Assembly: GCA_965262635.1 (NCBI GenBank)
Contig: OZ253547.1
Coordinates: 3,644,234-3,708,233 of the forward strand
DNA length: 64,000 nt
From: Candidatus Versatilivorator sp.
GTDB taxonomy: Bacteria; Acidobacteriota; Terriglobia; Versatilivoradales; Versatilivoraceae
Direction: 5' to 3'
Part shown: one piece after another, positions 3,099 to 62,593 of the stretch
Numbering within the stretch: position 1 is the first letter of the stretch
How the letters are laid out: each line of letters starts with the position of its first letter
Program-made: the position numbers and the translations under genes
Notes under the pieces: model-generated
The model's database searches: none
Seen by the model: the letters and a program-made list of their open reading frames with translations, nothing else
Told to the model about the DNA's origin: nothing

Positions 3099-3172
3099 TG
3101 AAATCGTCATCGTCGATATCGGGGCTGAAGAGGGCAGCAAAAGATCACCCTCGGACGGGCCTGAATCCCAAT

Positions 3173-4222: not shown

Positions 4223-4284
4223 TGCAGGACACTCTTTCCGCGGTCGGCTGACTCTCGGACTGCTCAATGGGTGGGTACGGCGGG

Positions 4285-8199: not shown

Positions 8200-8330
8200 T
8201 CAAACCCTTCCGGTTATTGCCTTCGATAAACCTTGATTTAAACGTCAAGGGAGTTTCGGGCCGTCACTTCGCCTCGCGATCACCGGCTGCAGAAACTGCC
8301 TGCTCGAAGCTAGCGCTAGCCCGCATGGCC

Positions 8331-9805: not shown

Positions 9806-9821
9806 GGAACCTCTTGGGGTC

Positions 9822-9858
9822 TAGCCCCCATTTCTCACCGGGGGGCGTGATCATGACA
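9822..9858. repeat. solo MITE terminus
   Basis: CCCCCATTTCTCACCGGGGGGCGTGATCATG; other solo termini at 13396-13420 and 39245-39265, and a very degenerate one at ~45641-45660. Confidence 0.55.
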
Positions 9859-9909
9859 CCGGCTTCTGCGGTGCGGTGCGGTCGGATCTGTCCGGGTTGA
9901 CTCCCTGCC

Positions 9910-11925: not shown

Positions 11926-11961
11926 CGAATCTGCTCAGGTCGTGGCCTGCTGACGCCGTTC

Positions 11962-13185
11962 CTATCCCAACTGTTTGCCGTGTCGGCTCATGAATTCCTG
12001 AATCACCTGCAGATGCACCTGCTTGTAGGGCACCCGGTGCCGATGGGCCAGGGCCTTGCATTCCTCATACTCCGGAGAAAAACTCACGATTCGGCCATCC
12101 AGCCGCGCCACTTTCACGGACACTTTGCCCAGCGAACTTTCTACCGGCTCAACGGTTCTGTCCAACACTTTTCTATGGCATTGGTGATAACGCAGGCCCA
12201 GTGTGGTGGTCTCCTCAAAAAGCACCTTGCAGACCCCATCCAGGAGCTCCAACGGAAGCACAACGGTGAGGAGAACTCCCGGACGACTCTTTTTCATTTG
12301 GACCGGACAGGAAAACACGTCATGCACTCCCAGTTCAAACAGCTTCCCCTGCACATATCCAACAATCTGGGGGTTCATGTCATCGATGTTGGCCTCCAGA
12401 ACCAACACCCTGGAATCCGAGGAAGCTGCATCGGAATCGACCGGTTGGCCCCTCAACACCCGGAGCACATTGGGACCTTCCCGCAGATCACGGCTGCCGG
12501 CGCCATACCCGATTCCCTCCACTCGAAAGCCTGGCAACGCTCCAAAACTCCGACTGATGGTGGTCAGGATAGCCGCTCCCGTCGGTGTAACCAGCTCCCC
12601 CTCAATCTTGTTGGAGTATATGGGCAGTCCTTTGAGCAGCTCCGCCGTGGCCGGGGCGGGAACGGGCATGGTCCCGTGGGCGCAGTCTACCGTTCCCCAG
12701 CCCACATTGAGAGGCGAGGACAGACATTGGGGCACGCCCATCCAGTGCAATCCGACAAAGGCTCCGACAATATCGACGATGGCATCAACGGCGCCCACTT
12801 CGTGAAAGTGAACTTTTTCCACCGTGGTGCCATGAACCTTGGCCTCTGCTTCGGCGAGTCGGAGGAATGATTGGCAGGCGTTGTCTTGAACCCAGGGAGC
12901 AAGCGTGCTGCTGCGGATGATCTTCTCGATGGTCGAATAGTGTCGGTGGTGATGCTCTTCGCCGGTTTCCACATCGAATTTGGTCGCCAGCACCCCTGAC
13001 TTGTTGACCCGGGAAGATCTGAGACGGAAGTTCCTGACACTCAGCTTTTCCAGTTCGCCGGCGAGATATTCCAGCGGGAGTCCCAGGTCCAGCAACGCTC
13101 CCAGAATCATGTCTCCGCTGATTCCCGAGAAGCAGTCAAAATAAAGGGTGTCCCTGCGTTGAGTTCCCACCTGTTTCGCCTCCAC
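11962..13185 (-). CDS. larC: LarC-family nickel insertion protein (DUF111)
   Basis: N-terminal LYFDCFSGISGDM block characteristic of LarC/DUF111; ~400 aa. Confidence 0.7.
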   Translation of the reverse strand: MEAKQVGTQRRDTLYFDCFSGISGDMILGALLDLGLPLEYLAGELEKLSVRNFRLRSSRVNKSGVLATKFDVETGEEHHHRHYSTIEKIIRSSTLAPWVQDNACQSFLRLAEAEAKVHGTTVEKVHFHEVGAVDAIVDIVGAFVGLHWMGVPQCLSSPLNVGWGTVDCAHGTMPVPAPATAELLKGLPIYSNKIEGELVTPTGAAILTTISRSFGALPGFRVEGIGYGAGSRDLREGPNVLRVLRGQPVDSDAASSDSRVLVLEANIDDMNPQIVGYVQGKLFELGVHDVFSCPVQMKKSRPGVLLTVVLPLELLDGVCKVLFEETTTLGLRYHQCHRKVLDRTVEPVESSLGKVSVKVARLDGRIVSFSPEYEECKALAHRHRVPYKQVHLQVIQEFMSRHGKQLG

Positions 13186-13443
13186 GGAACTGTGTGAGCG
13201 CCCTTATCCGACCAGTCAACCTGTCGCACACACCATGACGCTGCCACACTCCGGGATGAAGGACTGGATTGGGGAGAGCAACCAGCGAGGCTGGGGACAA
13301 ATCACTGGCCTAAGATGAAGGAAACGGGCACCTTCCGGCTCATGCACAAGCCGATACTAGGCTCGGATTCGGCCTTTTGTCAAGGTGAACCCTAGCCCGA
13401 ATTTCTCACCGGGTCGCTGGATTCATTAATGAAAAGGAGTTAA

Positions 13444-13694
13444 CCCGCATTTCTCACCAGGACGCTGAGCATAAGGCAGAAAAGTGCTTGTCTTTAACAT
13501 CTTGCGGCGCTTTGTTTGGAGTCTTCAGGGTACGGACTGTGCTGGGCGCGCCCTGACTTGTCTTTTCCCCTTCAGCGCACACATGCTCCCTCGAATGGTG
13601 TTCCGGCTACGCCCTTCGGTCACGAGCACGCGCTGAGGGAAAAATGCCTGCGCCATTGTCACGCCCCCCGGCGAGAAATGCGGGCTGGCGGCTG
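13444..13694. repeat. MITE-like element copy (~250 bp) with 17-bp terminal inverted repeats
   Basis: CCCGCATTTCTCACCAGG ... CCGGCGAGAAATGCGGG; internal sequence is the reverse complement of copy 16858-17098; an additional solo terminus lies at 13396-13420. Confidence 0.75.
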
Positions 13695-13776
13695 GGGGGC
13701 ACCAGTGAAGCCTCAGACCCGGATTGCACGGGAAGGGTCCGTTTGGTATGGAAGCCCTTTCAGAGGGGTCCCACTC

Positions 13777-45783: not shown

Positions 45784-46419
45784 ATGTCAGCCCTGCAGGC
45801 CAGTGTTTCAGGGAACCTCCGACTCCGCCTCAAGGGAGTGGCAGCGAAACCCCGAGGGAAAACGCCGCTCTGGTCGCGAATACAATTGGCCGGACGCCTG
45901 TGCGAGCTTTCCTCCATTCCCGGATCTGCCCTGCTGACGGCTGCCTTTCGTCTGGTGCTGGATGCACAGATGGAGGGTGAGCCAGTGGCCTGGATTACAG
46001 CTATGCCGGACACCTTCTTCCCCCCGGATGCCGCTGCCAACGGTGTGGACCTGAATGCCCTGGTGGTGATTCGCGTGCCTGGCGCCCAGGCGGCGGCACG
46101 CTCGGCAGACCGGCTCTTGAGGTCGGGCGCCTTCGGCTTGATCGTGATGGATCTGAACTCCAATCCCACCATTCCCACCCCGCTGCAGGCACGTCTGGTC
46201 CAGCAGGCGCGGACCCACGATACCGCCATTCTCTGCCTGACCTCCAAAGCCAGGGAGGCTCCTTCGCTGGGATCGATGGTCTCTCTGAGAGGGCAAACTT
46301 CCTGCCGGCGCCTGGGAGCCGACCGTTTCCAGTACGACATCGAAATCTTGAAGGACAGACGTCATGGGCCGGGTTGGCGCCACACCGAGATCTGCCGTGG
46401 ACCGGACGGCCTGCATTAA
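45784..46419 (+). CDS. imuA: ImuA-like SOS mutagenesis protein (RecA/SulA-fold)
   Basis: 211 aa first gene of a three-gene cassette with ImuB and DnaE2; RecA-like core without intact Walker motifs, typical of ImuA. Confidence 0.6.
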   Translation: MSALQASVSGNLRLRLKGVAAKPRGKTPLWSRIQLAGRLCELSSIPGSALLTAAFRLVLDAQMEGEPVAWITAMPDTFFPPDAAANGVDLNALVVIRVPGAQAAARSADRLLRSGAFGLIVMDLNSNPTIPTPLQARLVQQARTHDTAILCLTSKAREAPSLGSMVSLRGQTSCRRLGADRFQYDIEILKDRRHGPGWRHTEICRGPDGLH

Positions 46420-47839
46420 TATCCGGGCACTGCCGCTGCAACTTCTGCTGAAGAAACACCCGGAGTGGAAACAGCGACCGGTCGCCGTGGTAGAGAAAGA
46501 GAAGCCTCAAAGCCCCATCCTGTGGGTGAACGGGGCAGCCGGTCAGGCCGGCATCCGGTCGGGGATGCGCTATGCCTCCGCCCTCTCGCTGGACCGGGAC
46601 CTGTGTGCCGGGACGGTTTCGGAGCAGGAAATCCAGAGGGCCGTCCAGCAGGTCCATCAACTGCTGGACCGCTTCAGCCCCCGGGTTGAGCCCTGTGAGG
46701 ATGAACCCGGGGTTTTCTGGGTCGACGCCAGCGGACTCGACAAGCTCTATGGGTCTCTCGAGGCCTGGGCCCGTCGGATTGACTCCCACCTCTCCCGGCT
46801 GGAGCTTACGGCCAGTATCGTCATCGGCTTCAGCCGCTTTGGCAGCTATGCCCTCGCCAAGGCAGCCAACCTGGTGACCGCACTTCCCTCCCTCGAGGTG
46901 GAGGGGGCCGAAAGCCGCCGGGTGAGTCTGCTGCATCTGCAACTCGATCCCAAGCTGCGCGACCGGCTGGAGAAGTTGGCGATTCATACCGTGGGAGACT
47001 TGCTGGGTCTTCCCGAAGCCGGCATTCAACGCCATCTTGGCGAGCAGGCCCGAAGCCTCTACCGTCTTGCGTCGGGAGAGCTGTCACTGCCGCTTCAGCC
47101 CCGAAGCATCCCCGAGTCCCTCCGCGCCCGAATGGACCTGGACGAGTCCGACTCCAATGCCCAGAGACTGCTTTTCCGGATCAAGCAGTTGCTGGACCCC
47201 CTGTTGAGGGCGGCGGCGGAAAGGTACCAGGTGGCGGCGGCCCTCCAGTTGCAGCTTCGGCTGGAGAACGGAGCTCATCACCGCCAGCGCATCCAGCCGG
47301 CCCGGCCGACCCTGGAGGTTTCAGTCTTGCTGGATCTGGTCCGGTTGCGCCTGGAGACGGTCTGCTTGGGCGCTCCTCCCCTGGAATTGTCCCTGGAGGT
47401 GGAAGCCGTATGCGTCTCCGCCGAGACGCGGGATCTGCTGCAGCGGAACCCCCGACGCAATACCGAAGCAGCCCTGCACGCCCTGGCCCGGGTTCAGGCC
47501 GAGTTCGGGCCCGATTCAGTGCTTTCGGCCCGGCTCAAACCGGGACACCTGCCCGAAGCGCGTTGGGAGTGGCAACCCTTTCAGAGACTCGCCCCGGCCA
47601 TTCCCCGGCCGGTCTCCATCCGCCCCCTGGTGCGGCGCACCCATGCCCGTCCCAAGCCTCTCGACTGGAGGAGACCGCCGGGTCCGGGGCGTCTGCTCGG
47701 GTATCTGATCAGTGGAGGCTGGTGGAATCGGGAGATTCGAAGAGACTACCGGTTCGTCAACACCAACCGGGGAGAGGTCCTCTGGGTCTATTACGATCAA
47801 CAAGGACGTCGCTGGTACTCCCAGGGCCGCGTGGAGTGA
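46364..47839 (+). CDS. imuB: ImuB, Y-family polymerase-like mutagenesis protein
   Basis: N-terminal ACINIRALPLQLLLKKHPE, similar to ImuB N-termini; UmuC-like palm without catalytic carboxylates; true start probably a GTG near 46395 to limit overlap with imuA. Confidence 0.75.
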   Translation: MGRVGATPRSAVDRTACINIRALPLQLLLKKHPEWKQRPVAVVEKEKPQSPILWVNGAAGQAGIRSGMRYASALSLDRDLCAGTVSEQEIQRAVQQVHQLLDRFSPRVEPCEDEPGVFWVDASGLDKLYGSLEAWARRIDSHLSRLELTASIVIGFSRFGSYALAKAANLVTALPSLEVEGAESRRVSLLHLQLDPKLRDRLEKLAIHTVGDLLGLPEAGIQRHLGEQARSLYRLASGELSLPLQPRSIPESLRARMDLDESDSNAQRLLFRIKQLLDPLLRAAAERYQVAAALQLQLRLENGAHHRQRIQPARPTLEVSVLLDLVRLRLETVCLGAPPLELSLEVEAVCVSAETRDLLQRNPRRNTEAALHALARVQAEFGPDSVLSARLKPGHLPEARWEWQPFQRLAPAIPRPVSIRPLVRRTHARPKPLDWRRPPGPGRLLGYLISGGWWNREIRRDYRFVNTNRGEVLWVYYDQQGRRWYSQGRVE

Positions 47840-47848
47840 ACGCAAACC

Positions 47849-50800
47849 GTGCCCGCCTCCAATCAACCCTACGTTCCCCTCTGGTGCAAGAGCAACTACT
47901 CCTTTCTGGAAGGGGCCAGCCATCCCGAGGAACTGGTCGATGCCTGCCGGCAGAACGGCATTCCCGCCCTGGCGCTCACCGACCGCCACGGGGTGTATGG
48001 ACTGGTCAGGGCTCACGTTCGCGCCCGCCAGTGCGGCATCCACTTGATCGTAGGGTCGCAGATCAGCCTTCGGGACGGACCTGAGATCCTGTTGCTGGTC
48101 CGGAACGAGCAAGGTTACCGCAATCTCTGCCGACTGCTGACCGACGGGCATCTGCGTTCCTCCAAGGGGAAGTGCAAGCTGGACTGGCAGGAGGTGTGCG
48201 GCTACAGTCGCGGTCTGATTGCTCTGTGGATCGGCCCGTCCGACCCCAAAGCTTCTCTGGAATCCGCCTCCGAACCCCTCCTGGAGCAGTTCAAAGCGGC
48301 ATTCGAAGACCGTCTCTACATCCTGCTGTCCAGACACCGACGGGCAGAGGAAGTCCTGCGGGAGATTCAACTGCGAAAGCTGGCGGACCGGTTCAGGCTC
48401 CCTACCGTGGCCGCCGTGGAGGTCCTCTACCACGCTCCCGAACGGCGCCGTCTGCAGGACGTTCTGACCTGTATCCGGGAAGGAGCGACCCTGACCACTG
48501 CCGGTCGGCTCATCCGGCCGAACGACCAGCACGCCCTGAAGAGCCCGGAGGATTTGGCGCGTCTCTTCAGCGACGATCCGGAGTCGGTCCAACGGACCCG
48601 GGAGGTCGCCTCCCTCTGTTCCTTTTCGCTGCAGGAACTGCGTTACCGCTATCCACTGGAGTGCCTGCCGGAAGGGAAGACCTCCAGCCAGCACCTGCGT
48701 GACCGGACCTTCCAGGGAGCCGCCCGCCGACTGGGCGGAAAGTTCCACAGCCTGATTCCACAATTGCGGAAGGAACTCGATCTCATCCGGGAGCTGGAGT
48801 ACGAAGGCTACTTTTTAACCATGCACGAGATCATCGAATACTGCCGCCGCCAAGACATCCTCTGCCAGGGCCGCGGGTCGGCCGCCAACTCGGCGGTCTG
48901 CTTTGCCCTGGGGATCACCAGCGTGGACCCGACCCAGGTGGACCTCCTCTTCGAGCGTTTTCTGTCCAGGGAGAGGGCCGAACCTCCGGATATCGATCTG
49001 GACATCGAGCACAACCGCCGGGAAGAGGTGATCCAGCATGTGTACGAAAAGTATGGGCGCGATCATGCCGCCATGGTGGCCAATGTGGTTCGTTACCGGC
49101 ATCGGTCCGCCATCCGCGAAGTGGGCAAGGTGCTGGGGGTTGCGGCAACCAGCCTGGATCGCTTGGCCAAGCTGGTGTCCCACGACCGCTGGAGCGGTGA
49201 GTTCATCCGCCAGGCCGGACTCGATCCCCAAAACCCGGCCCTGCTCCATCTGACCTCTCTGGTGGAAGAGATTCAGGATTTTCCCCGTCATCTCTCCATC
49301 CATCCCGGGGGCTTTCTGCTGGGTCATCGCCCCGTCCACGACCTGGTGCCGATCGAGAACGCCTCCATGCAGGGCAGAACGGTTATTCAGTGGGACAAGG
49401 AGGACGTGGACCAGGCAGGCCTGTTCAAGGTAGACCTGCTGGGACTGGGCGCCCTCACCCACCTGCACCTCTGCTTCGATCTCCTGAGGCGACACCGGCG
49501 ACAGAAGCTTTCCCTGGCTACCATCCCCAAGGGAGATCCCTCGACCTTTGAAATGGTCTGCCGCAGCGACACGGTGGGGGTGTTTCAGATCGAGAGCCGC
49601 GCCCAGATGGCCATGTTGGGGCGCCTCAAGCCGCGCAGCTACTACGACCTGGTGATCGAGATCAGCATTGTGCGCCCCGGACCCATCACCGGCGGCATGG
49701 TCCATCCCTATCTGCGGCGGCGCAACGGTCAGGAGGAGGTCGAGTACCCCCACCCCTGCCTCATTCCCGTCCTGAAGAAAACCCTGGGCATTCCTCTGTT
49801 TCAAGAACAGGTGATGCAACTGGCCATGGTGGCAGCCAACTACTCTCCCGGAGAGGCCGACCAGCTCCGGCGGGACATGGCGGCCTGGCGGAGTTCAGGT
49901 CGAATCGAGCGTCACCGGCAGCGGCTGGTCACCCGCATGGTGGCCAAGGGGATTCAGCAGGAGTTTGCCGAGCGTGTCTTCCAGCAGATCCGTGGATTCG
50001 GTGAATACGGCTTCCCTGAGAGCCATGCCGCCAGCTTTGCCCATATTGCCTATGCCACTGCCTACCTCAAATGCCACTATCCGGCGGAGTTTGTCTGCGC
50101 CCTGCTGAATGCCCAGCCGATGGGATTCTACTCGGCCGCCACCATCGTCAACGATGCCCGCCTCCATGGAATCGAGGTGAGGCCGGTCAGCATTCTCGAC
50201 AGCCACTGGGATTGTAGCCTGGTCGAAATTGAGGGAGTTCCAGGAGAACCCGCCGAGTTCGCGGTCCGCATGGGGCTGCGTTACGTCAGGGGACTGGGGC
50301 GGGGAGACTGGCACAGGCTGGCGGAAGCGGCTCGGCAAGCTCCCTTCCGCAACCTGCCGGACGTGGCCCGGAGAAGCCGGCTCCGCCAAGACAGGCTGGA
50401 AACTCTGGCCGAGGCCGGGGCCTTCGAGTGTTTCGGCCTGGACCGGCGAAGGGCTCTTTGGCAGATTCAGGGGTTGGCAACCGAACCCCAGCCCGTGCTG
50501 CCCTTGGACAGCCGCGACCCCTTGCCCCGATTCCCCTCCCTGAGCGGACTGGAAACCATCCTCTGGGATCATGAGGCCAGCGGCCACAGCGCCCGGGGCC
50601 ATCTCCTGAAACCGCTGCGCCCCGCTCTGGAAGCCCAGGGACTGCCCACCGCGCGCCAACTCAACCGGATGCCGGGCGGCCGCCGGGTCCGCTATGCCGG
50701 CATGGTCATCTGCCGCCAGCGGCCGGGGACCGCGGGGGGAGTCACCTTCATGACCTTGGAGGACGAGACGGGCTTCGTCAACCTGGTCATCTGGAAACAG

Positions 50801-50962
50801 ACCTTCGAGCGCTATTCCCTGCTGGCCAAGACACTTTCCTGCATGGGGGTCACCGGAAATCTGCAGGTGGCGGAAGGGGTCACCCACCTAGTGGTCCGGA
50901 AAATCTGGAAGCCGCAGTTGGAGAAGGGATCACTGCACCTGACGAGCCGGGACTTTCACTGA
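47849..50962 (+). CDS. dnaE2: error-prone DNA polymerase III alpha paralog DnaE2 (ImuC)
   Basis: 1037 aa; PHP domain N-terminus ([17 protein letters not shown]), Pol III alpha core, OB fold; the length is typical of DnaE2. Confidence 0.9.
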
Positions 50963-51813: not shown

Positions 51814-51997
51814 GCGGGGCGAAGGGATCGAACGAGCAAACGCTCACTGAGGCCACCAGTCCACCGATCGGTTACGGCATGCACGGGTAACCGACGGCGC
51901 CGTTACGCCTGCAGGGCGGCCCATCGAGGTAGGAAATCTGCTCCTGGCCGCCATGCGGCGCGGCAGGCTTCCCGAAGATGATGGACCGGAATTTGCG

Positions 51998-54697
51998 ATG
52001 ACCCAAGAGAAGATCACCCTCGCCCAACTCGAATCTTTCCTCTTCAAGGCCGCCGACATCCTGCGCGGCAAGATGGACGCCTCCGAGTTCAAGGAATTCA
52101 TCTTCGGAATGCTGTTCCTGAAGCGGCTCTCCGACGAGTTCGACCGCAAGCGCCAGCAGCTCCGCGATCAGGTCTTTGCCCACCTCAAGCACCAGCCCAA
52201 ACTACAGGCGGAACTGCTGGAAGAAAAGATCTCCTACGGCGAGACCTTCTTCGTGCCTGTCCGCGCCCGCTGGAACCAGGCATGGACGGACGAGAACGGT
52301 GACCAGGTCCCGGCCCTCAAGGACCTCAAGCACGATATCGGCAACATGCTCAACAAGGCCATTGCCGCGGTGGAAGACGAGAACGACTTCCTGGCCGGCG
52401 TGCTTAAAAGCAACATCGACTTCAACGCCGTCAAGGGAAAGACGAAAATCCCGGACCAGAAGTGGAAGGACCTGTTGGATCACTTCAACCAACCGCGCTT
52501 TGTCCTGGTCAACGACAACTTCGAGTTCCCCGACCTGCTGGGCGCAGCCTACGAGTACCTCATCAAATACTTCGCCGACAGCGCCGGCAAGAAAGGCGGC
52601 GAGTTCTACACGCCGGCGGAAGTGGTGCGCCTGCTGGTGCAGCTCACCAAACCTGAAGCAGGCAACGAGATCTACGACCCCACCGCCGGCTCCGGCGGCT
52701 TTCTCATCCAGTCCCACCAGTACGTCGAGGAACAGGGCCAGGACGCCAATGATCTATTCCTCTGCGGGCAGGATTCCAACGGGACCACCTGGTCCATCTG
52801 CAACATGAACATGATCCTCCACAATATCACCGGTTTCACCATCGAGAACGGAGACACGCTGGAGGACCCGCAGATCCTGAAGAACGGCCAGATCTGCAAG
52901 TTCGACCGGGTGCTGGCCAATCCCCCCTTTTCGCAGAACTACAGCCGCGCCAACATGACATTCACCAGTCGCTTCCGCGAGTGGTGCCCGGAAAGCGGCA
53001 AGAAGGCCGACCTCATGTTCGTCCAGCACATGCTGGCCAGCCTCAAGCCCGACGGCCATATGGCCACGGTGATGCCCCACGGCGTGCTCTTCCGCGGGGG
53101 CAAGGAAAAGCTCATCCGCGAACTGCTGATCGGCGATGACGTGGTCGAGGCCATCATCAGCCTGCCGCCCGGCCTCTTCTACGGCACCGGCATTCCGGCC
53201 TGCGTGCTGGTGTGCAACAAGAGCAAGCCCGACCCGCTGCGCGGCAAGGTGCTGTTCATCAATGCCGACCGCGAGTACGCCGAAGGCAAGAACCAGAACA
53301 AACTGCGCCCGGAAGATACCGAAAAGATTGATTTCGTCTTCACCCACAAACGTGAAATCCCCAAGTACAGCCGCCTGGTGGACAAGACCGAGATTGCCGA
53401 TGCCCACGACTACAACCTCAACATCCGCCGCTATGTGGACAACACCCCCGAACCGGAGCCGGAGGACGTGAGCGCCCACCTCATCGGCGGACTCCCGGAA
53501 GAAGAGGTGGAGGCCCGAGCCGGTGACTTCGACCGCTTCGGCATCCATCCCGACTCGCTGTTCCGGCCCCAACGCCCCGGCTACCTGGCTTTCTGCCAGA
53601 CCATCGAGGCCAAGCCCGCCATCAAGACCACGCTTGAATCCGCCCCTGCGCTCCGGCACACCCTCACCGCCCACTTCGAGGCCCTCGCAGCCTGGTGGAA
53701 GGTTGCCCGGGACGACTTTGCCCAACTGCAATACACACAGAAGACGGTGAAAAACGGCGTCAGGAAGATGCCCGAGGTGCGTCATGAACTGCTCGTCACC
53801 CTCAAAGACAAGTTGGTTCCCCAGAAGGTGCTGGACGAATTCAAGAGCGCCGGCGTCTTCGTGAACTGGTGGCAGCAGATCCGCTTCGATCTCAAAACGA
53901 TCGTCTCCATCGGCTGGCACCACAGCCTCGTCCCCGACGACTATCTGATCCGAGCCTTCTTTCAGGCCGAGGCAGACGCAATCGAGAGACTCGAAGCCAG
54001 TATCGGCCAAGGCCAGGGCGAGTTGGCGGAGGCCTTGGAAACCGCCCAGGAAGTCGCGGCCTATGAGCCCGACGAAGGCGAGAAGGTCACCGCGGCCGTC
54101 CTCAAGAAGGCACTGAAGTCCCTGATCGCTGACCTCAAGGACAGCCCCGGCGATTCGGCCAGGAAGGAGCTGGAGCGCCTCCGGGAGCAGGACAGGATTC
54201 TCAAGGCTATTGAAACGCGGATCAAGAAAGACAGGGCGGCGCTCAAGGACAAATCCGCCGAACTGAAGCTCAAGCTGCAATTCAAGCGCGTCGGCAGCCA
54301 AGACTACCAGGCCGAAACCCAGGCGCTCATCAAGCAGGTTGACACCCGGCTTGCCGACCTCGACCCCCAAAACAAGGCGGACAAGAAGAAGATCACGGCG
54401 CTGAACAACGACAAGAAGGCTCTGGTAGAGCGTATTGCCCGCACGGATATACTCTTGGCCCAGATCGGCGGGCAGCTATCCGAGGAGAAAGCCCGTGAAC
54501 TGATTCTGGCCAAGCTCTACGACATCGCCCACGCGGAGTTGAAGCGATATCTCAACGCAGAAAAACGCAGCTTGGTGCTCGGGATCGAAAATTTGTGGGA
54601 CAAGTACGCGGTAAGCAGCCGGGAGCTTGAGGTGGAACGGGATGCAACGCTGAAGACGCTGGATGGATATTTACAGGGTCTGGGTTACTTCGAATGA
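51998..54697 (+). CDS. hsdM: type I restriction-modification N6-adenine DNA methyltransferase subunit HsdM with long C-terminal coiled-coil extension
   Basis: FYTP (motif I region [11 protein letters not shown]), NPPF ([10 protein letters not shown]); N-terminal HsdM_N domain; ~350 extra C-terminal residues rich in heptad-like K/E repeats. Confidence 0.85.
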
Positions 54698-56049
54698 ACG
54701 CCAACTGGCCAACTTACAAATTAAGGGATATCGCCGATGTGCGCGTGAGCAATGTCGACAAGAAGACCAGCCATGCCGAAACAACAGTCAAGTTGTGCAA
54801 CTACATGGACGTTTACGCGAACGATTACGTGACCAAATCAATCGACTTCATGGCGGCGTCAGCAAGTAAGTCGGAGATCGAACGGTTCTGCCTTCAAGCA
54901 GGCGATGTCATTATCACAAAAGACTCAGAGACTCCGGACGACATCGGCGTGCCTGCGGTGGTAACTGACTCCATAGACGGATTGGTTTGCGGCTATCATC
55001 TGGCCCTTATCAGACCCCGGAGCGATATTGTCGATTCGATCTATTTGGCAAAGCAGTTATCTACTGCGCCGATCGCTCGCTACTTCGCCTTGAATGCGAG
55101 CGGGTCAACCCGCTTCGGACTTCCCATTAGCGCAATCGAGGACACTCGGATTCCGGTTGCTCCCAAACCGGAACAAACAAAGATTGCCGAGATACTCTCA
55201 ACGGTAGACCGTGCCATCGAGCAGACGAAAGCCTTGATCGCCAAACAGCAGCGCATCAAGACCAGCCTGATGCAAGACCTTCTCACCCGCGGCATCGACG
55301 AACACGGCAACCTCCGCTCTGAACAAACCCACCAGTTCAAAGACTCTCCCCTGGGATGGATTCCCATGGAGTGGGAACGTGGATATTTCGAGTCATGTAT
55401 CTCTGGAAGTCCCAAAAACGGGATTTATAAGCCGCAATCTGCATATGGTGAGCAAGGCGCACCCATTATTCGCATAGATGCGTTCGGTCACGGAGATAGA
55501 ATTAAAGCCCAATCATACAAAAGAGTCGTGCTGTCAAAGTCAGAAATCGACCAGTACAGGTTGAGAGAGGGCGAGATATTGATAAACCGAGTTAATAGCA
55601 TCCAGTATTTGGGTAAGACAGCCCTGGTGGAACACCTGTCGGAAGCGACTGTTTTTGAATCCAATATGATGAGGTTGACCATTGACCAGGGGCGAATGTT
55701 ACCGGACTTTGCTCTTCTACTCCTGACTGGTCTGGCAGCCTCCAGACACTTCTTGAGAAATGCAAAACTCGCAATTGCTCAAGCAAGCATTAATCAGCAT
55801 GATGTCATCTCGCTCCCGATACAACGCCCGCACCTTGAGGAGCAGCGCGCCATATGCGAACGCATAGCCTCGAATGCTGGTTCAATCAAGAATACGTTCT
55901 CAGGCTTAGAAAAACTGAATCGGGTCAAAACCGCCCTTATGCAAGACCTTCTCACCGGTAAACGCCGCGTAACTTCTTATGTCCCTACCTCAAGCAATCA
56001 GCCAGGCCAAGGACTTGAGTATCTGGCTGCACGAAAAGACAAACGATAG
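54694..56049 (+). CDS. hsdS: type I R-M specificity subunit HsdS (two target-recognition domains)
   Basis: 451 aa; two conserved spacer repeats ([14 protein letters not shown] central, [13 protein letters not shown]-terminal) separating two variable TRDs; ATGA overlap with hsdM. Confidence 0.85.
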
Positions 56050-56593
56050 AGGAATCTCCGATGACAGGCGAAGTCAAACGGGGTCAAGCCTTCTTCAACT
56101 CTCGTTAGATATAGCCGACGCGATCATCACTTTGTTGGAAAAGAATTTGCCGGACAATTTGCCGGGGCCGGCTTGGGCGCTTGCGAGACCTCTCTTCGAA
56201 AGTTACGTTCTTGGTATCTGGATATTGAAGTGTGCCTCCGATGAACAAGTCGATCACTTCCTCAATAATGGGCGGCGGCCGAAGTTTTCCAAACTATTGA
56301 AGGCAATAGACAATAAAGCGAAGCCTCATGCGGATTGGATTCGGGAGACCGAAAAGGCGAACATGCGCTACTTTCATGATTTTACCCACGGTGGAATTCA
56401 GCACGTCAGGCGTAGGATTACTGAAAACTCAGTGGAACCAAATTATCCGGAGCAAGAATTACAATACTTGGTCGGTCTCGGAGTTGAGGTGAGTATTCGT
56501 GTTGGTGTCGAGATTTTTTCGCTCATAAACGATCGAGTCGGGATCATGCAACTATATGAACAAGCACAGGTTTTTCCCAGACAGCCACTCTGA
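55979..56593 (+). CDS. hypothetical alpha-helical protein inserted after hsdS (start uncertain)
   Basis: ORF-track ATG overlaps hsdS by 70 nt; an in-frame TTG near 56132 just after hsdS stop is an alternative start (~150 aa); AT-rich relative to flanks; no family recognised. Confidence 0.35.
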   Translation: MSLPQAISQAKDLSIWLHEKTNDRGISDDRRSQTGSSLLQLSLDIADAIITLLEKNLPDNLPGPAWALARPLFESYVLGIWILKCASDEQVDHFLNNGRRPKFSKLLKAIDNKAKPHADWIRETEKANMRYFHDFTHGGIQHVRRRITENSVEPNYPEQELQYLVGLGVEVSIRVGVEIFSLINDRVGIMQLYEQAQVFPRQPL

Positions 56594-56710: not shown

Positions 56711-57022
56711 ATGATGATTAGATGGTTTATTGATTGGCTGGTTTCGCTGTTTAAGGTAAAAGCAGTGGGAGTTCGAACCAATCAGATTTTGCGTGGAACT
56801 TACCCACTAGATGAAGGAATGCGCTCAAGGAGTTTGATATTAAATCCAGGTTCAGTACAAGAGGCTAGGCTGATATCTGGCTGGGGTGGGTCTCATGATT
56901 CCACAGATATCCCCTATGTGCAGGCTGGTGCTGTTTCGAGAATTAGGCTCACTACAGGGGAGGTGATGTGGGTTACAAGTTCCCCTGACGAACCCAAGCA
57001 TGTTTTGTCATGGCCCAATTAG
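56711..57022 (+). CDS. hypothetical protein
   Basis: 103 aa ORF in an AT-rich segment, GAGGAGGA RBS 5 nt upstream of ATG; no recognisable domain. Confidence 0.35.
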   Translation: MMIRWFIDWLVSLFKVKAVGVRTNQILRGTYPLDEGMRSRSLILNPGSVQEARLISGWGGSHDSTDIPYVQAGAVSRIRLTTGEVMWVTSSPDEPKHVLSWPN

Positions 57023-57233: not shown

Positions 57234-58235
57234 TTAAGCTACTTTCTTTGCCTCTGCAGGCGGATTGATCCACACCTTGTCCGGCGGTCCGGCGATCTGC
57301 CTGGGTCCCTTGACGAAACGCTCCGGGTGTTGTTGGTGAGCGCGATCCAGAGCCTGCTGACGTCGTTGGAGAACCGGGCCGGTTTGACCGTAATGGACCA
57401 TCGCCGGCGTGAGCCAGCTCAGGCCCGAATGGTAGTGGAGGTTGTTGTACCAATAGAAAAAGTCCCGGCAGAAGGCCTTGGCGTCCTGGATGGAACCGAA
57501 TCGTTCGGGGAAGTCGGGGCGGTACTTCAGGGTTTTGAACTGGGCTTCCGAGAACGGGTTGTCGTCGGACACCTGCGGCCGGGAGTGGGACTGGGTCACA
57601 CCCAAGTCCGACAGCAGCAGTGCCACCGCCTTCGACTTCATCGACGAGCCGCGGTCAGCGTGGAGAATCAGTTGACCGCGATCGATCCTTTGCCTGTCAC
57701 AGCTTTCACCAATCAACTTTTTAGCCAGAGTCGCCGATTCGCAATCGGCCACCATCCACCCCACCACTTGGCGGCTGAAGATGTCGAGGATCACGTAGAG
57801 GGAGAAGGAGGTCCACTTCCGGGGCCCCTTCAGCCGGGTGATATCCCAGGTCCAGACTTGGTTGGGGCCTGTTGCTAACAGTTCCGGCTTCCGGTAGACG
57901 GGATGGCGCCGTTGGTGGCGTCGTTCGCGCACTTCCTGATTCGCATCCAGAATCCGGTACATGGTGCGTACCGAGCACAAATAGCGGCCTTTATCCAGCA
58001 GGGCCGCACAGACCTGGGCGGGCGCCTGGTCCAGGAAGCGCTCGCTATGCAGCAGGTCGAGGACGGCTTGCCGCTCGGCGGCATTCAATGCCCGAGGTGA
58101 CCGTGGGCGGGCCCGCTCGGCACCGGGTGCGGCCCCCCGCTGCCGACGCCGGTACAGCGACGCCCGGGCAACCCCGAAGGCCCGGCACGCCGGTGCCGTC
58201 CCCAATTCGGTGGAGAACTTCTCGGCCGCTGTCAT
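57234..58235 (-). CDS. IS3-family transposase OrfB (DDE integrase core)
   Basis: rve domain blocks (WTWDITRL, LHADRGSSMKS, SDDNPFSEAQFKTLK); 333 aa. Confidence 0.85.
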   Translation of the reverse strand: MTAAEKFSTELGTAPACRAFGVARASLYRRRQRGAAPGAERARPRSPRALNAAERQAVLDLLHSERFLDQAPAQVCAALLDKGRYLCSVRTMYRILDANQEVRERRHQRRHPVYRKPELLATGPNQVWTWDITRLKGPRKWTSFSLYVILDIFSRQVVGWMVADCESATLAKKLIGESCDRQRIDRGQLILHADRGSSMKSKAVALLLSDLGVTQSHSRPQVSDDNPFSEAQFKTLKYRPDFPERFGSIQDAKAFCRDFFYWYNNLHYHSGLSWLTPAMVHYGQTGPVLQRRQQALDRAHQQHPERFVKGPRQIAGPPDKVWINPPAEAKKVA

Positions 58236-58726
58236 CAGTGGTTGCCTCCCTCGTCCGCGCTCTTCAGAGATATCCCCAGCAGCGTGGAGACTTTTTTTTG
58301 GATCTCGATGACCGTTTCCGTTTGCTCCAGCTTCCTGCGAAGCCGCCGCCTCTCCCGTTCCAGCTCAGCGATGCGCTGGTCTCGGGCGTCCTTCGGCCGG
58401 GCTTTCCGTCCTCGCTTCGGCGAACCCCTGCCCGACAGGACCCCGGCATCGTGTTGCCGTCGCCAAGCGCTCAAGTTCGAGCCATACAGACCCTCTCGGC
58501 GCAGTAATGCCCCCAGTTCGCCCGGCTGGCTGCACTGGTCCGCTTCCCGCACGATCCGGCGCTTGTAGGCGGCGCTGAACCGTCTCCGTGTCGCCTTGTC
58601 GCATACTTCCAGATCCGGTCTATCCTCATCCCGACCAGCCGCTTCGCCAGCCACTCCAGTCGCCCTACGGGCTCCTTCCGTGGCTGGCGATTCTTCGTTC
58701 TCCTTCTTTGTTTTGAGCACCAACAC
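58235..58726 (-). CDS. IS3-family transposase OrfA (HTH)
   Basis: 163 aa; HTH plus leucine-zipper-like region (IAELERERRRLRRKLEQ) typical of IS3/IS911 OrfA. Confidence 0.8.
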   Translation of the reverse strand: MLVLKTKKENEESPATEGARRATGVAGEAAGRDEDRPDLEVCDKATRRRFSAAYKRRIVREADQCSQPGELGALLRREGLYGSNLSAWRRQHDAGVLSGRGSPKRGRKARPKDARDQRIAELERERRRLRRKLEQTETVIEIQKKVSTLLGISLKSADEGGNH

Positions 58727-58808: not shown

Positions 58809-59585
58809 CTACACGGACGATTCCGATTCAACGCCAAATAGCTGCCTCACGATGTCCGGAGCACGGGGTTCCTGTTTTGGGCCATGTTTGCGCAGACAAT
58901 CAGTCCAGGAGTTGAGATATTCGGAGAAAGTACTGTCCTTTCGAACGTCCCAGCAGTTCAACCAGCCGCAATCGCGCCAAAGGGCGGGGTTTTGGCTGAA
59001 GCTGCCTAGCAACGATACCGCCACGACACGATTGAGTTCCCGGCAGGTGGGGTTTTCCTCCATCAGGTGGATGTTCCGGTTAAGCCAACCGGGAAGATCG
59101 GATTGTGAGGGTATCGGGGTCTTCTCTTCGACCTCCTCCGCATATGACTGATGGTGCCTGGCGAATGCGGAAGCTTCGAAGACCTCGGACGGAGGATCCT
59201 CTTTCCAGTCCTCTGCCAGGGATCTCAGGACATGGAGGGAAGCCAGTTCGCAGAGGCTTTCCTCGAACCACTTGTGCTTGTGTTTCTTGTAGCTGTCGAA
59301 ATGAGTCAGGATGTGACAGAGTTCATGTGAAAACTGGTACACATACTGGCTCCAGTAGGTATCTGTCGCACTGAGAAAAACCTGGTATGGGCGCTTTTCG
59401 TACACGGTAAACGGATAGTCCCTGTTCCAGCGGGATACATGAACAGCCGCCTCAGGCGCCACTTCAAATGACCGGACCAGTACACGATGGGCCGACGAGA
59501 GGACTGCACGAATCGCGCTCAGGCTTGTCAGTCCCCAATTCCCGTTGATGATCGTCACGGCAGCCTCTGTGTTCCCCGGCGTCAT
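58809..59585 (-). CDS. HExxH-motif protein, putative gluzincin-type zinc metallopeptidase of unrecognised family
   Basis: 258 aa; FSHELCHILTH with downstream EESLCE about 18 residues later (HExxH...E spacing of gluzincins); ATGA overlap with the upstream ATPase gene, so the two are co-transcribed. Confidence 0.45.
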   Translation of the reverse strand: MTPGNTEAAVTIINGNWGLTSLSAIRAVLSSAHRVLVRSFEVAPEAAVHVSRWNRDYPFTVYEKRPYQVFLSATDTYWSQYVYQFSHELCHILTHFDSYKKHKHKWFEESLCELASLHVLRSLAEDWKEDPPSEVFEASAFARHHQSYAEEVEEKTPIPSQSDLPGWLNRNIHLMEENPTCRELNRVVAVSLLGSFSQNPALWRDCGWLNCWDVRKDSTFSEYLNSWTDCLRKHGPKQEPRAPDIVRQLFGVESESSV

Positions 59586-61159
59586 GAGATTTCTCCTCTA
59601 ACCTTCGGCGATACGAAGAGTCCGCCCAAGTCTCCTCGTCCATCGGGACTGCGAAGCATCTTCTCCAAGTCCGGCAAATCCCTGCAAATCCATCCGTCGG
59701 CGTCGAGCCTGGATCGCCTGTCACTGGGAAAACTCGGAGCAAAGAGCGCCAACTCGTGTTTCCAGTCCCGAAAACGGCTTCCCTTGCGGGTCGACAGAAA
59801 ATTCGCCACATGTTTCCGGAAACGCTTGAGGGATTCCCGGTCGTGGTTTCTTGCGGTTCTCTTGCAGGATCCAAAGCGCACCTTCCGGTTGCGTTCGTCT
59901 TGTGCAACCAAGTCAATCTCGATTGGTGGCTGGCCGCCTCGCGGTCGATTCCAATAGCCGTGAATCTGTTGCGTCATGGAAAAATCCCCGGTATCCAAGC
60001 GTGACGCCTCTTCGCACGCTTGGCGAACCAGCACCTCGAACGCGTGTCCTTCCAGTGTTCGGAGCCTGGAGAGAAGTCCTTTCACCAACCGGGACTCGGG
60101 AACCACGCGCATGTCTTGCCGGGTCTCCTTCAACACGGCCAACCAGGCCCGCAGAAACGGATCCGAGACGGCGTAGCGCGCATTCCTCGGTTTTCCTTCC
60201 GCGAAGACGGGAAACGACTTTTCGATGAGCCTCAGGTCTTTCACAAGAACTTCAAGATAAGCCCCCAAGGACGACAGCTCCGGAAGCCGTTCCAGCAATT
60301 CGGCATGGGAGCACGGTCCGTGCCTGGCCAGAGTGTGAAGAATGGCCAGATAGTTTCGGCGCAATTCGCCTCCGAGCAGTGCCTCGCCCTCCTGACTCAA
60401 CGGAGCGTTGCCGGAAAGGAAGAGCCTGTTGCACAACTCGGTTGCCCAATCGTCCCACCGGTCAATGGCGTCCAGCCCATCTTCCCTGGCAAACAATTCC
60501 CAGTACCTGGGCACACCGCCGAACAGCGTCCAAAGGGTCAGACGTCTTTGTGGATCGGTTGCACCATGTTTCCCGCTGACTTCAAAGATTGTCTTAAGAT
60601 CCCACGGCCCAAGCCTGATGTCGAAGGTGGTCCGCCCGAACAGTGGCGCCTTGCGGTCTTCAAGCAATGCTTCCATTTCCGTCTGGATGGAGCCAACGAC
60701 AATCAGTCCGCCTTTTCTATTGCTGCGGCTGAGCCGGTCCACTTCTGCCTGCAGCAGAGATGGGAAACCCTTGAGCGGCCCCTGGTAGCAGAACTGAAAT
60801 TCATCGATGACGACTATCGCTCCCCGGCTGCAGAGTGAGCCGATCACGCTCGCGACTCCTTCCAGGTCCCGCACGTCATCGAGCCCAACAATCTGTTGAT
60901 CTGGATTCCATCGTCGGGCAGCGCGCCTGAAAACGCTGGCGGTGTCCGAAACACTGCTGTCGGGCAGTTGAAACAATAGCGCCAGCCGCAAACTCGGATC
61001 GTCACTCCTGATTGTGGTGAGCACCTGGTTGATGAGGGCCGTCTTTCCTATCCGGCGTCGTCCCCGTATGGAACCGAAGAACCAGCGTCCCTTGCGCATA
61101 TGTTCGAGGAGTTGCCCTGCTTCTTCCCGACGACCGTAGAATGACCACTTGGCGCTCAT
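59582..61159 (-). CDS. AAA+ ATPase of the archaeal-ATPase type with C-terminal DUF234-like (restriction-endonuclease-like) domain
   Basis: 525 aa; Walker A GRRRIGKTA, Walker B IVVIDEFQ; C-terminal block IEIDLVAQDERNRKVRFGSCKRTA resembles DUF234; AT-rich divergent promoter region to the HigA-like gene. Confidence 0.65.
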   Translation of the reverse strand: MSAKWSFYGRREEAGQLLEHMRKGRWFFGSIRGRRRIGKTALINQVLTTIRSDDPSLRLALLFQLPDSSVSDTASVFRRAARRWNPDQQIVGLDDVRDLEGVASVIGSLCSRGAIVVIDEFQFCYQGPLKGFPSLLQAEVDRLSRSNRKGGLIVVGSIQTEMEALLEDRKAPLFGRTTFDIRLGPWDLKTIFEVSGKHGATDPQRRLTLWTLFGGVPRYWELFAREDGLDAIDRWDDWATELCNRLFLSGNAPLSQEGEALLGGELRRNYLAILHTLARHGPCSHAELLERLPELSSLGAYLEVLVKDLRLIEKSFPVFAEGKPRNARYAVSDPFLRAWLAVLKETRQDMRVVPESRLVKGLLSRLRTLEGHAFEVLVRQACEEASRLDTGDFSMTQQIHGYWNRPRGGQPPIEIDLVAQDERNRKVRFGSCKRTARNHDRESLKRFRKHVANFLSTRKGSRFRDWKHELALFAPSFPSDRRSRLDADGWICRDLPDLEKMLRSPDGRGDLGGLFVSPKVRGEIS

Positions 61160-61268
61160 GCCTATAGCATAATTTATGTTTTCTAATTGTCAATATCGTT
61201 AGAGAGTGGCATGCTTGCGAAGTCACGATCTAGAATTATCACAAGGTGTAAGCCCCAGGAGACAGGCA

Positions 61269-61523
61269 ATGACCCGAGTAAAGACGCATCCCGGCAGCGT
61301 GCTGCGGGCGGAGTTGGAGGCGAGAGGCATGAGCGCGAACCGGCTTGGGCTCGCCATCCGAGTTCCCGCCAACCGCATTACCGCCATCCTGCGTGGCCGA
61401 CGGGCGGTCACGGCCGAAACCGCGGTGCGCCTTGGCCGCTTTCTCGGAACAGGCCCCGCATTCTGGATGAATCTGCAAAGCGCATACGCGATCTCGGTCG
61501 TCGAGAACGCGAAAGTCGTGTGA
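61269..61523 (+). CDS. HigA-family XRE HTH protein (orphan antitoxin-like regulator)
   Basis: 84 aa from MTRVKTHPG; HPGSVLRAELEARGMSANRLGLAIRVPANRITAILRGRRAVTAETAVRLGRFLGTGPAFWMNLQ is the HigA/VapI signature; no toxin ORF immediately upstream. Confidence 0.65.
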   Translation: MTRVKTHPGSVLRAELEARGMSANRLGLAIRVPANRITAILRGRRAVTAETAVRLGRFLGTGPAFWMNLQSAYAISVVENAKVV

Positions 61524-61611: not shown

Positions 61612-61690
61612 CGGAATATCGATGAACAGGATGGATCGGATTCTTTTTCTCTATCCTGAATATCCTGTTCATCCATGTTCAAAGATTAAA
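61612..61690. repeat. hairpin repeat, copy 1 (copy 2 at 62483-62555)
   Basis: Both copies share ATTCTTTTTCTCTATCCTGAATATCCTGT(T/C)CATCCATGTTCAAA; the 5' arms differ (GATGAACAGGAT vs ATGGATGGACAGGATA) but remain complementary to their own 3' arm, i.e. compensatory covariation; each follows the 3' end of an antitoxin gene. Confidence 0.6.
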
Positions 61691-61878
61691 ACCGCCGTTT
61701 CATAAGGCGACGCTGCCTAGAAATTCTTTCACAATATCGCGGTTGCCCGAGGCGATCTCTTCTTCCGCCAATTCCCGGTTTGCCCGCAACACGAGTTGTA
61801 CGGCCTCAATCAGATTCGCTTCAGCCTCTTCCAGAGTCTTACACCGCGGGCAGCGGTCTCCGCATCCCCAAAAAACAC

Positions 61879-61917
61879 TTGCAACATGACATGCCTTGAG
61901 GCATAACGTGTTGCATG
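61879..61917 (+). promoter_or_regulatory. imperfect palindromic operator/promoter upstream of higB
   Basis: TTGCAACATGACATGCC ... GGCATAACGTGTTGCATG (12/16 inverted match) including a TTGCAA -35-like hexamer; ~55 nt before the higB GTG. Confidence 0.4.
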
Positions 61918-61971
61918 AGGTTGACTCACAGAGGATTGAGACGGTTAGCCGAACAAGACGATGCCTGATCG

Positions 61972-62187
61972 GTGCCGCAATCTCTTGTTCGTCGTATCCG
62001 TCGCATCTTGACGGAATTGGATGCGGCGCAATCGGCTCAAGACATGAACTTGCCTGGCTACCGGCTGCACCCGCTGAAGGGCGCTAGACACGGGCAATGG
62101 AGTATTCGCATATCCGGTAACTGGCGCATTGTCTTTCGCTTCGAGAACGGCGAGGCGGTAGACGTTGACCTGGTTGATTACCACTAG
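61972..62187 (+). CDS. higB: HigB toxin (RelE/ParE superfamily), GTG start, short N-terminus
   Basis: C-terminal LPGYRLHPLKGARHGQWSIRISGNWRIVFRFENGEAVDVDLVDYH matches the HigB consensus; an upstream in-frame stop leaves only 71 aa. Confidence 0.75.
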   Translation: MPQSLVRRIRRILTELDAAQSAQDMNLPGYRLHPLKGARHGQWSIRISGNWRIVFRFENGEAVDVDLVDYH

Positions 62188-62198
62188 GAGAACCTGAG

Positions 62199-62459
62199 AT
62201 GACCATGATGAACCCGACACACCCGGGCGAAAGCGTCCGCAACTGCATCGAAGAATCCGGCTTGACGGTGACGGAGTGCGCCAAGCGGCTTGGCGTGACC
62301 CGGAACAACCTGTCAAGGTTGTTGAACGGGCGGATTGGGATTTCGGCTTCGGTGGCCCTGGGGTTGGAACGCATCGGTTGGAGCAACGCGGAGTTCTGGA
62401 TGAGATTGCAAGGAAACTACGCATTGGCGCAAGAGCGGCGAAGGCAAACGGCGGCTTGA
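62199..62459 (+). CDS. higA: HigA antitoxin (XRE HTH)
   Basis: 86 aa; HTH block LTVTECAKRLGVTRNNLSRLLNGR; 11 nt after higB. Confidence 0.75.
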   Translation: MTMMNPTHPGESVRNCIEESGLTVTECAKRLGVTRNNLSRLLNGRIGISASVALGLERIGWSNAEFWMRLQGNYALAQERRRQTAA

Positions 62460-62593
62460 TAGGCGCAGACCAACCCAAAGAAGGGAACATGGATGGACAG
62501 GATACATAGGATTCTTTTTCTCTATCCTGAATATCCTGTCCATCCATGTTCAAAAACTCCTAAACCCTTTGAGCCAGCCATCGCGGCGACAGG

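Follow-up and report, generated by a model that had tools for sequence, protein, structure and literature searches.

What does a zincin-like protein do in an operon with an ATPase that carries a nuclease-like domain, and do the two genes, lodged in a type I restriction-modification (R-M) locus, serve in defence? The question is raised by a stretch of 64,000 nucleotides from Candidatus Versatilivorator sp. (Acidobacteriota; contig OZ253547.1, positions 3,644,234 to 3,708,233 of the forward strand), referred to here as the window. An open reading frame (ORF) list of the window places a 525-aa protein at 59582-61159 and a 258-aa protein at 58809-59585, both on the minus strand, and a helix-turn-helix (HTH) ORF at 61206-61523 on the plus strand. 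The original prediction, made from the sequence alone, saw in these genes a candidate undescribed defence module, and the coordinates, the motifs, the ATGA coupling and the context of R-M genes, an IS3 element and higBA on which it was built are all present. Our analysis indicates that the ATPase and the zincin very probably form a real two-gene functional unit, and we lean, with modest confidence, towards an anti-phage or anti-mobile-element operon as the best explanation overall. The divergent HigA-like gene does not belong to it. The features of the two genes are the following.

59582..61159, minus strand: gene 1, 525-aa P-loop ATPase (ATPase_2 / ORC-STAND-like) with a winged-helix region and a DUF234 PD-(D/E)xK-like domain
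61040..61063, minus strand: Walker A motif GRRRIGKT, residues 33-40; G33, R35, G38, K39 and T40 invariant in 32 homologues
60800..60817, minus strand: Walker B motif VVVIDE, residues 115-120; V116, D119 and E120 invariant in the 32 homologues
59852..60145, minus strand: DUF234 / PD-(D/E)xK-like domain, residues 339-436; 24.5 bits in Pfam against a cut-off of 22.5
59585..59647, minus strand: clade-specific tail of the ATPase, residues 505-525; consensus R-G-x-x-G-x-L-x-x-S-P-K-[VI]-x-G-E
59582..59585, minus strand: ATGA stop/start overlap, read from the sequence; translational coupling
58809..59585, minus strand: gene 2, 258-aa cytoplasmic gluzincin-fold protein
59313..59327, minus strand: HELCH (H87, E88, H91), helix motif for zinc binding and catalysis; the window copy has it intact
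59259..59264, minus strand: E108-E109 (of WFEE, 106-109), candidate for the third zinc ligand, on the helix that follows

The association of the two genes is not a matter of chance, because homologues are detectable for both of them (318 and 734) and dozens of genomes show the same pairing. On the minus strand the junction reads ...GAAATCTCATGACGCCG..., and the stop codon of the ATPase gene overlaps the start codon of the HExxH gene. Such an overlap was seen in 42 of 47 intact pairs, by 1 nt (TGATG or TAGTG) in 27 and by 4 nt (ATGA) in 15. Selection by way of the zincin, with one genome scanned for each species, gave 76 loci, 62 of them with a zincin >44% identical to that of the window; the ATPase or its remains lie directly upstream in 53 of these 62, and 42 of the 62 are intact pairs. 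Three loci with a 'solo' zincin (L010, L024 and L041) still hold C-terminal remnants of the ATPase. The 14 distant zincins (26-36% identity) are without an ATPase and have unrelated neighbours. Selection through the ATPase gave a matching picture: among 80 metagenome loci, a zincin was found at the single locus with 55% identity and at none of the 79 with 25-42% identity. Of four further ATPases (≥49% identity), picked blind to the zincin, three are accompanied by an intact zincin gene; the fourth, L158, is followed by a truncated zincin remnant and then by ParDE and an integrase. Overall, an intact zincin accompanies four of the five close relatives selected through the ATPase, with the truncated remnant in the fifth. 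Finally, the distance matrices of ATPase and zincin are strongly correlated (r = 0.91, a value reached in 0 of 2000 permutations; r = 0.74 for between-clade pairs only).

The operon that had been predicted is thus translationally coupled, conserved and co-evolving, and it co-occurs elsewhere in about nine phyla according to the labels of the sequence records (Acidobacteriota, Thermodesulfobacteriota/Syntrophobacterales, Dadabacteria, Binatia, Alphaproteobacteria, Latescibacterota, Spirochaetia, Gemmatimonadota and Nitrospirales). No third conserved gene or regulator was found near the pair beyond close relatives, and no alternative conserved partner in the solo ATPase clade of 35-42% identity. 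Plasmid or phage carriage of the pair was not found; what Mesorhizobium plasmids and Streptococcus prophages carry is only distant solo zincins (25-28% identity). The patchy spread and the frequent decay (remnants in L010, L024, L041 and L158) amount to accessory-gene behaviour, and to judge from these sequences the pair is probably a horizontally mobile operon. The metagenome-assembled genome names of L008, L039, L043, L051 and L057 (CAR2_bin, COS4_bin, RHO3_bin, SB0662_bin), together with the mix of phyla, resemble marine-sponge symbiont data sets; if the genomes do come from such sets, the pair may be spreading horizontally within one community type.

One locus (L164, protein P0241) encodes a fusion of 793 aa at 2000-4381, in the order ATPase-DUF234-zincin. 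We gave it little weight as proof of a physical link, because it stems from a single 5-kb metagenome scaffold, has a frameshift-like linker inside the tail and carries a degenerate HExxH motif (AQQVCH). A PIN gene adjoins the fusion, which could be an artefact or a decaying copy. The asymmetry of gene loss was likewise rejected as a test of toxin and antitoxin roles, the two sets of loci having been sampled via different genes. Among the distant prophage zincins, those of the Streptococcus phages Javan169 (L161, 3306-4037) and MissG1 (L162, 3306-4013), 25-28% identical to the window protein and annotated as hypothetical, lie in lysogeny or early-regulation modules, divergent from HTH, repressor or antirepressor genes.

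The ATPase itself had already been catalogued. It matches the PADLOC model PDLC04985 (PDC-S27) with an E-value of 5.2e-154 and 511.7 bits, residues 3-502 aligning with model positions 2-483 of 484. Phage defence candidates (PDCs) were nominated from their embedding in type I R-M, BREX or DISARM loci (Payne et al., bioRxiv 10.1101/2024.01.29.577857). PDC-S27 is described as a single-gene fusion of an ATPase and a PD-(D/E)xK domain, abundant in bacteria and archaea, with validation pending; with ~8,000 detections, 43% of them archaeal, it is among the commonest candidate defence genes (PMC12988326). The window protein shares with this family the full-length hidden Markov model match and the fusion of an ATPase to a PD-(D/E)xK-superfamily domain, and departs from it in that a conserved, overlap-coupled second gene makes it other than a single-gene system. 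The description of the module as new therefore holds for the zincin partner and fails for the ATPase.

In the ATPase part, the Pfam model ATPase_2 spans residues 7-219 under its cut-off (28.9 against 33.2 bits), and structure comparison places the fold nearest to functionally uncharacterised ATPase_2 and Orc1/Cdc6 proteins of archaea. The DUF234 domain, which is classed as PD-(D/E)XK (PMC3424549), keeps E370/E375, E414-x-D416 and S431-C-K433 as invariant residues. A literature search on DUF234, and on a part for gluzincins in anti-phage defence, yielded this classification only. The third nuclease motif is S-C-K in the window protein and in the 35-42% clade, and has the canonical form E-[VC]-K in relatives of 25-30% identity. 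Nuclease activity is plausible from these motifs and not assured, since S-x-K stands in place of (D/E)-x-K.

The second protein was predicted to be gluzincin-like, and a structure search agrees: the best matches of its predicted model are M1 and thermolysin, with a thermolysin-like catalytic fold, the HExxH motif and a Glu on the following helix. The model is confident, with HELCH on helix 78-93 and E108/E109 on helix 105-129. In our alignment, E108 never varies and E109 is conserved to at least 90%; E109 is also kept in 14 of 14 members of the distant zincin clade, and these residues probably correspond to the Glu of the M1 motif 'WLNEG'. The protein has the gluzincin fold and yet is not a member of M1, because the GAMEN motif and the flanking M1 domains are absent. 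Two extra His residues, H102 and H104, are invariant and specific to the clade. The window protein may bind zinc and act as a peptidase; in its clade, the loss of ligands in ~15% of members shows that such activity is not universal.

Sequence libraries gave little more. With E-values up to 0.1, the window zincin has no match in Pfam, including Peptidase_M1, Peptidase_M78 and Peptidase_U49; its profile found nothing in the PDB by sequence, a PHROGs search with both proteins found nothing, and no PADLOC model covers the zincin. The HExxH region has a marginal match to RmrA, the antitoxin of RosmerTA (E 0.006), which is not significant. An exhaustive profile search collected 1,704 clusters at 50% identity (1,109 of them at E ≤1e-10), mostly of 240-320 aa. 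An N-terminal signal-peptide-like segment is present in ~40% of the top family representatives and in none of the window clade; it follows that the window protein is cytoplasmic and branches off from a large zincin family, as yet undescribed, many members of which are apparently exported. In four loci (L064, L065, L067 and L072; Verrucomicrobiota and similar), distant solo zincins share a conserved neighbourhood at ~8300-13700, in which a gene resembling glucuronyl esterases precedes the zincin and three or four genes, the same in each locus, follow it. For this branch, the synteny suggests a role other than defence.

A further link between the two proteins is the C-terminal tail of the ATPase. 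These ~20 residues are predicted to be disordered (AlphaFold2 predicted local distance difference test score ~30) and lie beyond residue 502, where the PDC-S27 model ends. All ATPases of the paired clade have the tail; 12 of 13 solo ATPases of 35-42% identity end just before it, and the remaining one has an unrelated tail. Tail and zincin were gained jointly in the paired clade; the 35-42% clade has neither. The two Gly residues of the tail are 98-100% conserved using all four Gly codons, and its Ser is 91% conserved over four codons. The final Gly codon (GGA/GGG) doubles as the Shine-Dalgarno sequence of gene 2; still, residues kept despite synonymous codon variation indicate selection on the peptide beyond the ribosome-binding site. 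Because a peptide that is conserved and disordered appears together with a fold that binds peptides, the sequences and structure models suggest that the tail is a ligand, a substrate or a pseudo-substrate of the zincin.

The zinc site of the partner is unstable. Among the 188 sequences of the paired clade, H91 is replaced by Arg in 23, H87 is lost in 7 (five times to Arg) and E88 in 3. H102, H104, E108/E109, Y148 and R182 are kept at ~96-98%, Y148 and R182 being near the active-site helices. On a neighbour-joining tree the change of H91 to Arg occurred at least 14 times independently, and 22 of 22 non-identical variants have Arg. The genes with this change are full length and coupled to full-length ATPases, and they include the nearest relatives of the window locus (L002, L003, L005 and L006). 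Peptidase catalysis is thus not universally required, since ligands or the Glu are lost in full-length, still-coupled genes, and a binding or regulatory role fits better than that of an obligatory effector protease.

Upstream of the pair, the original prediction had included the divergent HigA-like regulator and likened the arrangement to XRE and ImmA/IrrE-type sensor-protease pairs. Two features are relevant here.

61269..61523, plus strand: orphan HigA-family XRE HTH gene, 84 aa; TIGR02607 equivalog, 76.8 bits against a cut-off of 47.7
61166..61193, minus strand: sigma-70-like promoter TTGACA-16 nt-TATGCT, from a consensus scan (10/12 matches); ends 6 nt before the ATPase ATG

The likeliest start of the HigA gene is the ATG at 61269 (MTRVKTHPG...) rather than the GTG at 61206, which leaves a gap of 109 bp to the ATPase gene, with 41% GC against 55-58% in the module. 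The mRNA of the ATPase may be leaderless, as suggested by a predicted promoter that ends 6 nt before the ATG. This intergenic block, which holds a TCTAGA-centred and a GCATGC-centred motif, is nearly invariant in seven Terriglobia loci including L002. The HigA homologue is present only in L001 and L003-L006, which are close Terriglobia relatives, and is missing in all paired loci of other phyla and in L002, which retains the promoter region without it. HigA is therefore not a component of the system, and its annotation as such is unwarranted. Consequently, the analogy with XRE and ImmA/IrrE is unsupported for this clade: the HTH neighbour is not conserved, and Peptidase_M78 is not matched. Immediately upstream of the orphan HigA there is no cognate HigB, only the gap and the divergent ATPase; the single HigB, at 61972-62187, is paired with another HigA to which the orphan is 32% identical. 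In the relatives hsdR directly follows HigA; in the window a higBA cassette is inserted between the two. The orphan HigA may regulate the shared intergenic region, the downstream hsdR or both.

How far does the context speak for defence? The location inside a type I R-M locus is borne out, and fits the 'guilt-by-embedding' logic by which defence candidates are nominated. The hsdM and hsdR genes are 87-95% identical across L002-L006, and this embedding is one ancestral event in the Terriglobia lineage; one further independent methyltransferase adjacency was found, in L048. In 17 non-redundant loci from other lineages, the 121 neighbour proteins are mostly metabolic and ~10% belong to defence or toxin-antitoxin (TA) systems, a suggestive figure that has no matched control. 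They comprise HsdM (type I methyltransferase), AAA_15/21 (AriA/NsnB-like), SIR2/Dsr1, AbiEi and Phd proteins. Other loci have Cas1/Cas2, PIN/Phd, ParDE or an integrase as neighbours. Defence-island enrichment, one of the points on which the predicted role had been made to depend, is modest, and many loci have metabolic surroundings. On balance we regard a defence or conflict role of the pair as slightly favoured.

As we picture it, the pair would act against phages or mobile elements as a module of the nuclease or abortive-infection kind, in which the ATPase-nuclease would act as sensor and effector at once. The zincin would be a stoichiometric regulatory subunit holding the C-terminal tail of the ATPase, within a physical complex that we infer; catalytically intact zincins, the window copy included, might cleave the tail, and holding or cleavage would gate the nuclease activity. 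This gating is offered tentatively. A bolder version, which we consider doubtful, is that the zincin grips or cleaves the tail to gate the nuclease and that the change of His to Arg acts as an evolutionary toggle between a cleaving regulator and a merely binding one (a pseudo-peptidase), perhaps driven by phage counter-measures. Were this true, a defence system would be seen to use a new regulatory logic, and an undescribed zincin family of ~1,700 clusters would have its first function.

Several observations weigh against the proposal. Many paired loci stand amid ordinary metabolic genes, and ~15% of the paired zincins are without a zinc ligand or the catalytic Glu, the site being intact in 85%. 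With S-x-K instead of (D/E)-x-K, the nuclease of the clade may be inactive or non-canonical. Part of the conservation of the tail, that of the last GGA/GGG codon only, is explained by the downstream Shine-Dalgarno sequence, and the contact between tail and zincin is one that we infer. In addition, when expressed alone in E. coli B, a PDC-S27 representative was not one of the four candidates found to protect against T4, T5 or T7 (10.1101/2024.09.26.614923).

Other divisions of labour between the two proteins have to be considered. The zincin could be the effector or sensor, as in Lit, switched on by a phage product or by the activated ATPase to cleave an essential host factor or a phage protein, with the ATPase mainly as sensor or scaffold. 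An HExxH...E site intact in 85% of the paired members and in the window copy, and the conservation of Y148 and R182 near the active-site helices, are consistent with this; the S-x-K nuclease motif could shift the effector role to the peptidase, and IetAS is reportedly a precedent for a two-gene defence system of ATPase and protease. However, at least 14 independent losses of a ligand by change of His to Arg, in full-length and coupled genes, are hard to square with obligatory catalysis, and similarity to Lit (Peptidase_U49) was not found in Pfam, which makes this reading unlikely. The His to Arg variants do fit non-catalytic binding, and so would a TA-like addiction module kept by post-segregational killing, with the ATPase-nuclease as toxin and the zincin-fold protein as antitoxin. 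The tight coupling, the patchy distribution with horizontal transfer, the neighbouring TA genes (higBA, Phd/PIN, ParDE) and mobile elements, and the marginal similarity to RmrA (E 0.006) point the same way, but this last match falls short of significance, the ATPase relatives of 25-42% identity are partnerless and L158 has an intact ATPase beside a truncated zincin. The order would also be toxin-first, with an antitoxin that is large (258 aa) and without a DNA-binding domain, and we judge such a module to be improbable.

A system of three parts, with the divergent HigA-like XRE protein and the HExxH protein as an ImmA/IrrE-type pair controlling the ATPase-nuclease, is largely refuted by the lack of co-occurrence and is very improbable indeed. 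It could draw on the divergent layout over a conserved 109-bp promoter region in the window and five close relatives, on the very distant zincins of Streptococcus prophages that are divergent from HTH repressor genes, and on distant family members with sub-threshold Peptidase_M78 matches (E 0.01-0.06, below the 22-bit cut-off). Against this, HigA is missing outside the Terriglobia group and in L002, and no HTH or third gene is conserved across the paired loci; the window protein has no M78 match, its fold is best matched by M1 and thermolysin, and HigA in the relatives lies upstream of hsdR. An accessory function outside conflict, such as DNA repair or the processing of the nucleoid, in which a proteolytic maturation factor assists an ORC-like ATPase-nuclease, would suit the many loci flanked by metabolic genes only, the position of the window locus just downstream of imuB-dnaE2, and the closeness of the ATPase fold to archaeal ATPase_2 and Orc1/Cdc6. 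It accords poorly with a sporadic occurrence across phyla, a variable context and frequent pseudogenisation, and with the nomination of PDC-S27 from R-M, BREX and DISARM embedding, in which the window copy itself shares; moreover, the imuB-dnaE2 adjacency is absent in other phyla. We regard it as quite unlikely, and retain the defence operon as the reading to be preferred.

The wider setting of the pair in the window is composed of the following genes.

51953-54697, plus strand: hsdM, type I R-M
54694-56049: hsdS, type I R-M
55979-56593, plus strand: DUF6988/DUF5677 gene, 204 aa; PADLOC candidate PDC-S52, E 3.9e-18
57234-58726: IS3 (HTH_Tnp_1 and rve)
61972-62459: higBA, HigB itself at 61972-62187
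from ~62610: hsdR, N-terminus only, continuing past the window edge

Between hsdS and hsdR, the module shares the interval with the PDC-S52 (DUF6988) gene, the IS3 element and higBA. The DUF6988 gene is a second defence candidate embedded in the same R-M locus; taken from its first ATG, its ORF overlaps the 3' end of hsdS by ~70 nt. HsdM (914 aa) is unusually long: HsdM_N and N6_Mtase stop near residue 500 and are followed by a K/E/L-rich extension of ~400 residues that no Pfam model matched. Directly upstream of the R-M island, at 46364-50962 on the plus strand, are an imuB-like gene (IMS family) and a dnaE2-like gene (error-prone Pol III alpha). A 103-aa ORF (56711-57022, plus strand), which separates the DUF6988 gene from IS3, has no match in Pfam, PADLOC or NCBIfam, and the GC content falls to 48-50% around it. 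A 71-nt imperfect palindrome occurs in two copies only in the window, at 61613-61683 and 62484-62554 (90% identical). Each copy follows a higA and the two bracket higBA; the first is predicted to fold into a hairpin of -29.9 kcal/mol (z -4.1). The element could be a terminator or the mark of an insertion of the repetitive extragenic palindromic or miniature inverted-repeat transposable element kind. Between the orphan higA and higBA, a stop-free frame of 76 codons at 61700-61930 on the minus strand, ending in ...CKTLEEAEANLIEAVQLVLRANRELAEEEIASGNRDIVKEFLGSVAL before its stop codon and without a convincing start codon, is presumably the remnant of a small antitoxin-type gene (HicB-like).

Among known systems, pairs of XRE and ImmA/IrrE (M78) proteins and RmrA of RosmerTA resemble the locus in that an HExxH zincin lies near an XRE gene in the window and that there are weak sub-threshold matches around the HExxH helix. 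They differ in that the conserved partner here is an ATPase-nuclease and not a repressor, and M1 and thermolysin match the fold better. Compared with the M1 and thermolysin gluzincins (MEROPS clan MA(E)), the window zincin has 258 aa in a single domain, without GAMEN (G-x-M-E-N) and without the N- and C-terminal domains of M1, and its clade has the extra invariant H102 and H104 and a recurrent Arg at the zinc ligands.

Lit, the zinc protease of e14, is of the small cytoplasmic HExxH type and cleaves EF-Tu in abortive infection; IetAS is said to be a two-gene defence operon of an ATPase and a serine protease, IetS being a subtilase. The likeness to both is a functional analogy only, as neither IetA or IetS in PADLOC nor Peptidase_U49 in Pfam is matched and the zincin here is often catalytically degenerate. 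PrrC-EcoprrI, an anticodon nuclease in a type Ic R-M locus, is the classic latent defence nuclease, and like the window ATPase it is an NTPase and nuclease protein encoded between hsd genes. The ATPase of PrrC is, however, ABC-like and that of the window ATPase_2/ORC-like, the nuclease folds differ, and only here is there a peptidase-like partner; the PADLOC scan (E up to 0.1) returned the PDC-S27 and PDC-S01 models only and no PrrC match. The pair is also independent of R-M, because it is found mostly outside R-M loci.

The closest relative remains PDC-S27, whose model gene 1 matches end to end, with the same architecture and a like embedding in type I R-M. PDC-S27 is a single gene, whereas here the ATPase has an obligate, overlap-coupled gluzincin and a tail of ~20 residues past the end of the model. 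As far as the searched libraries and papers show, what is new is this zincin partner and the accompanying tail, which make the locus a two-gene form of a known candidate. Single-gene definitions in defence catalogues can overlook obligatory partners, and the paired clade offers an untried form in which a common candidate could be tested. For a large zincin family without a Pfam model, the coupling to an ATPase-nuclease is a first functional lead, and the recurrent replacement of His by Arg at a metal ligand is a natural experiment on catalysis versus binding in this two-gene version of PDC-S27.

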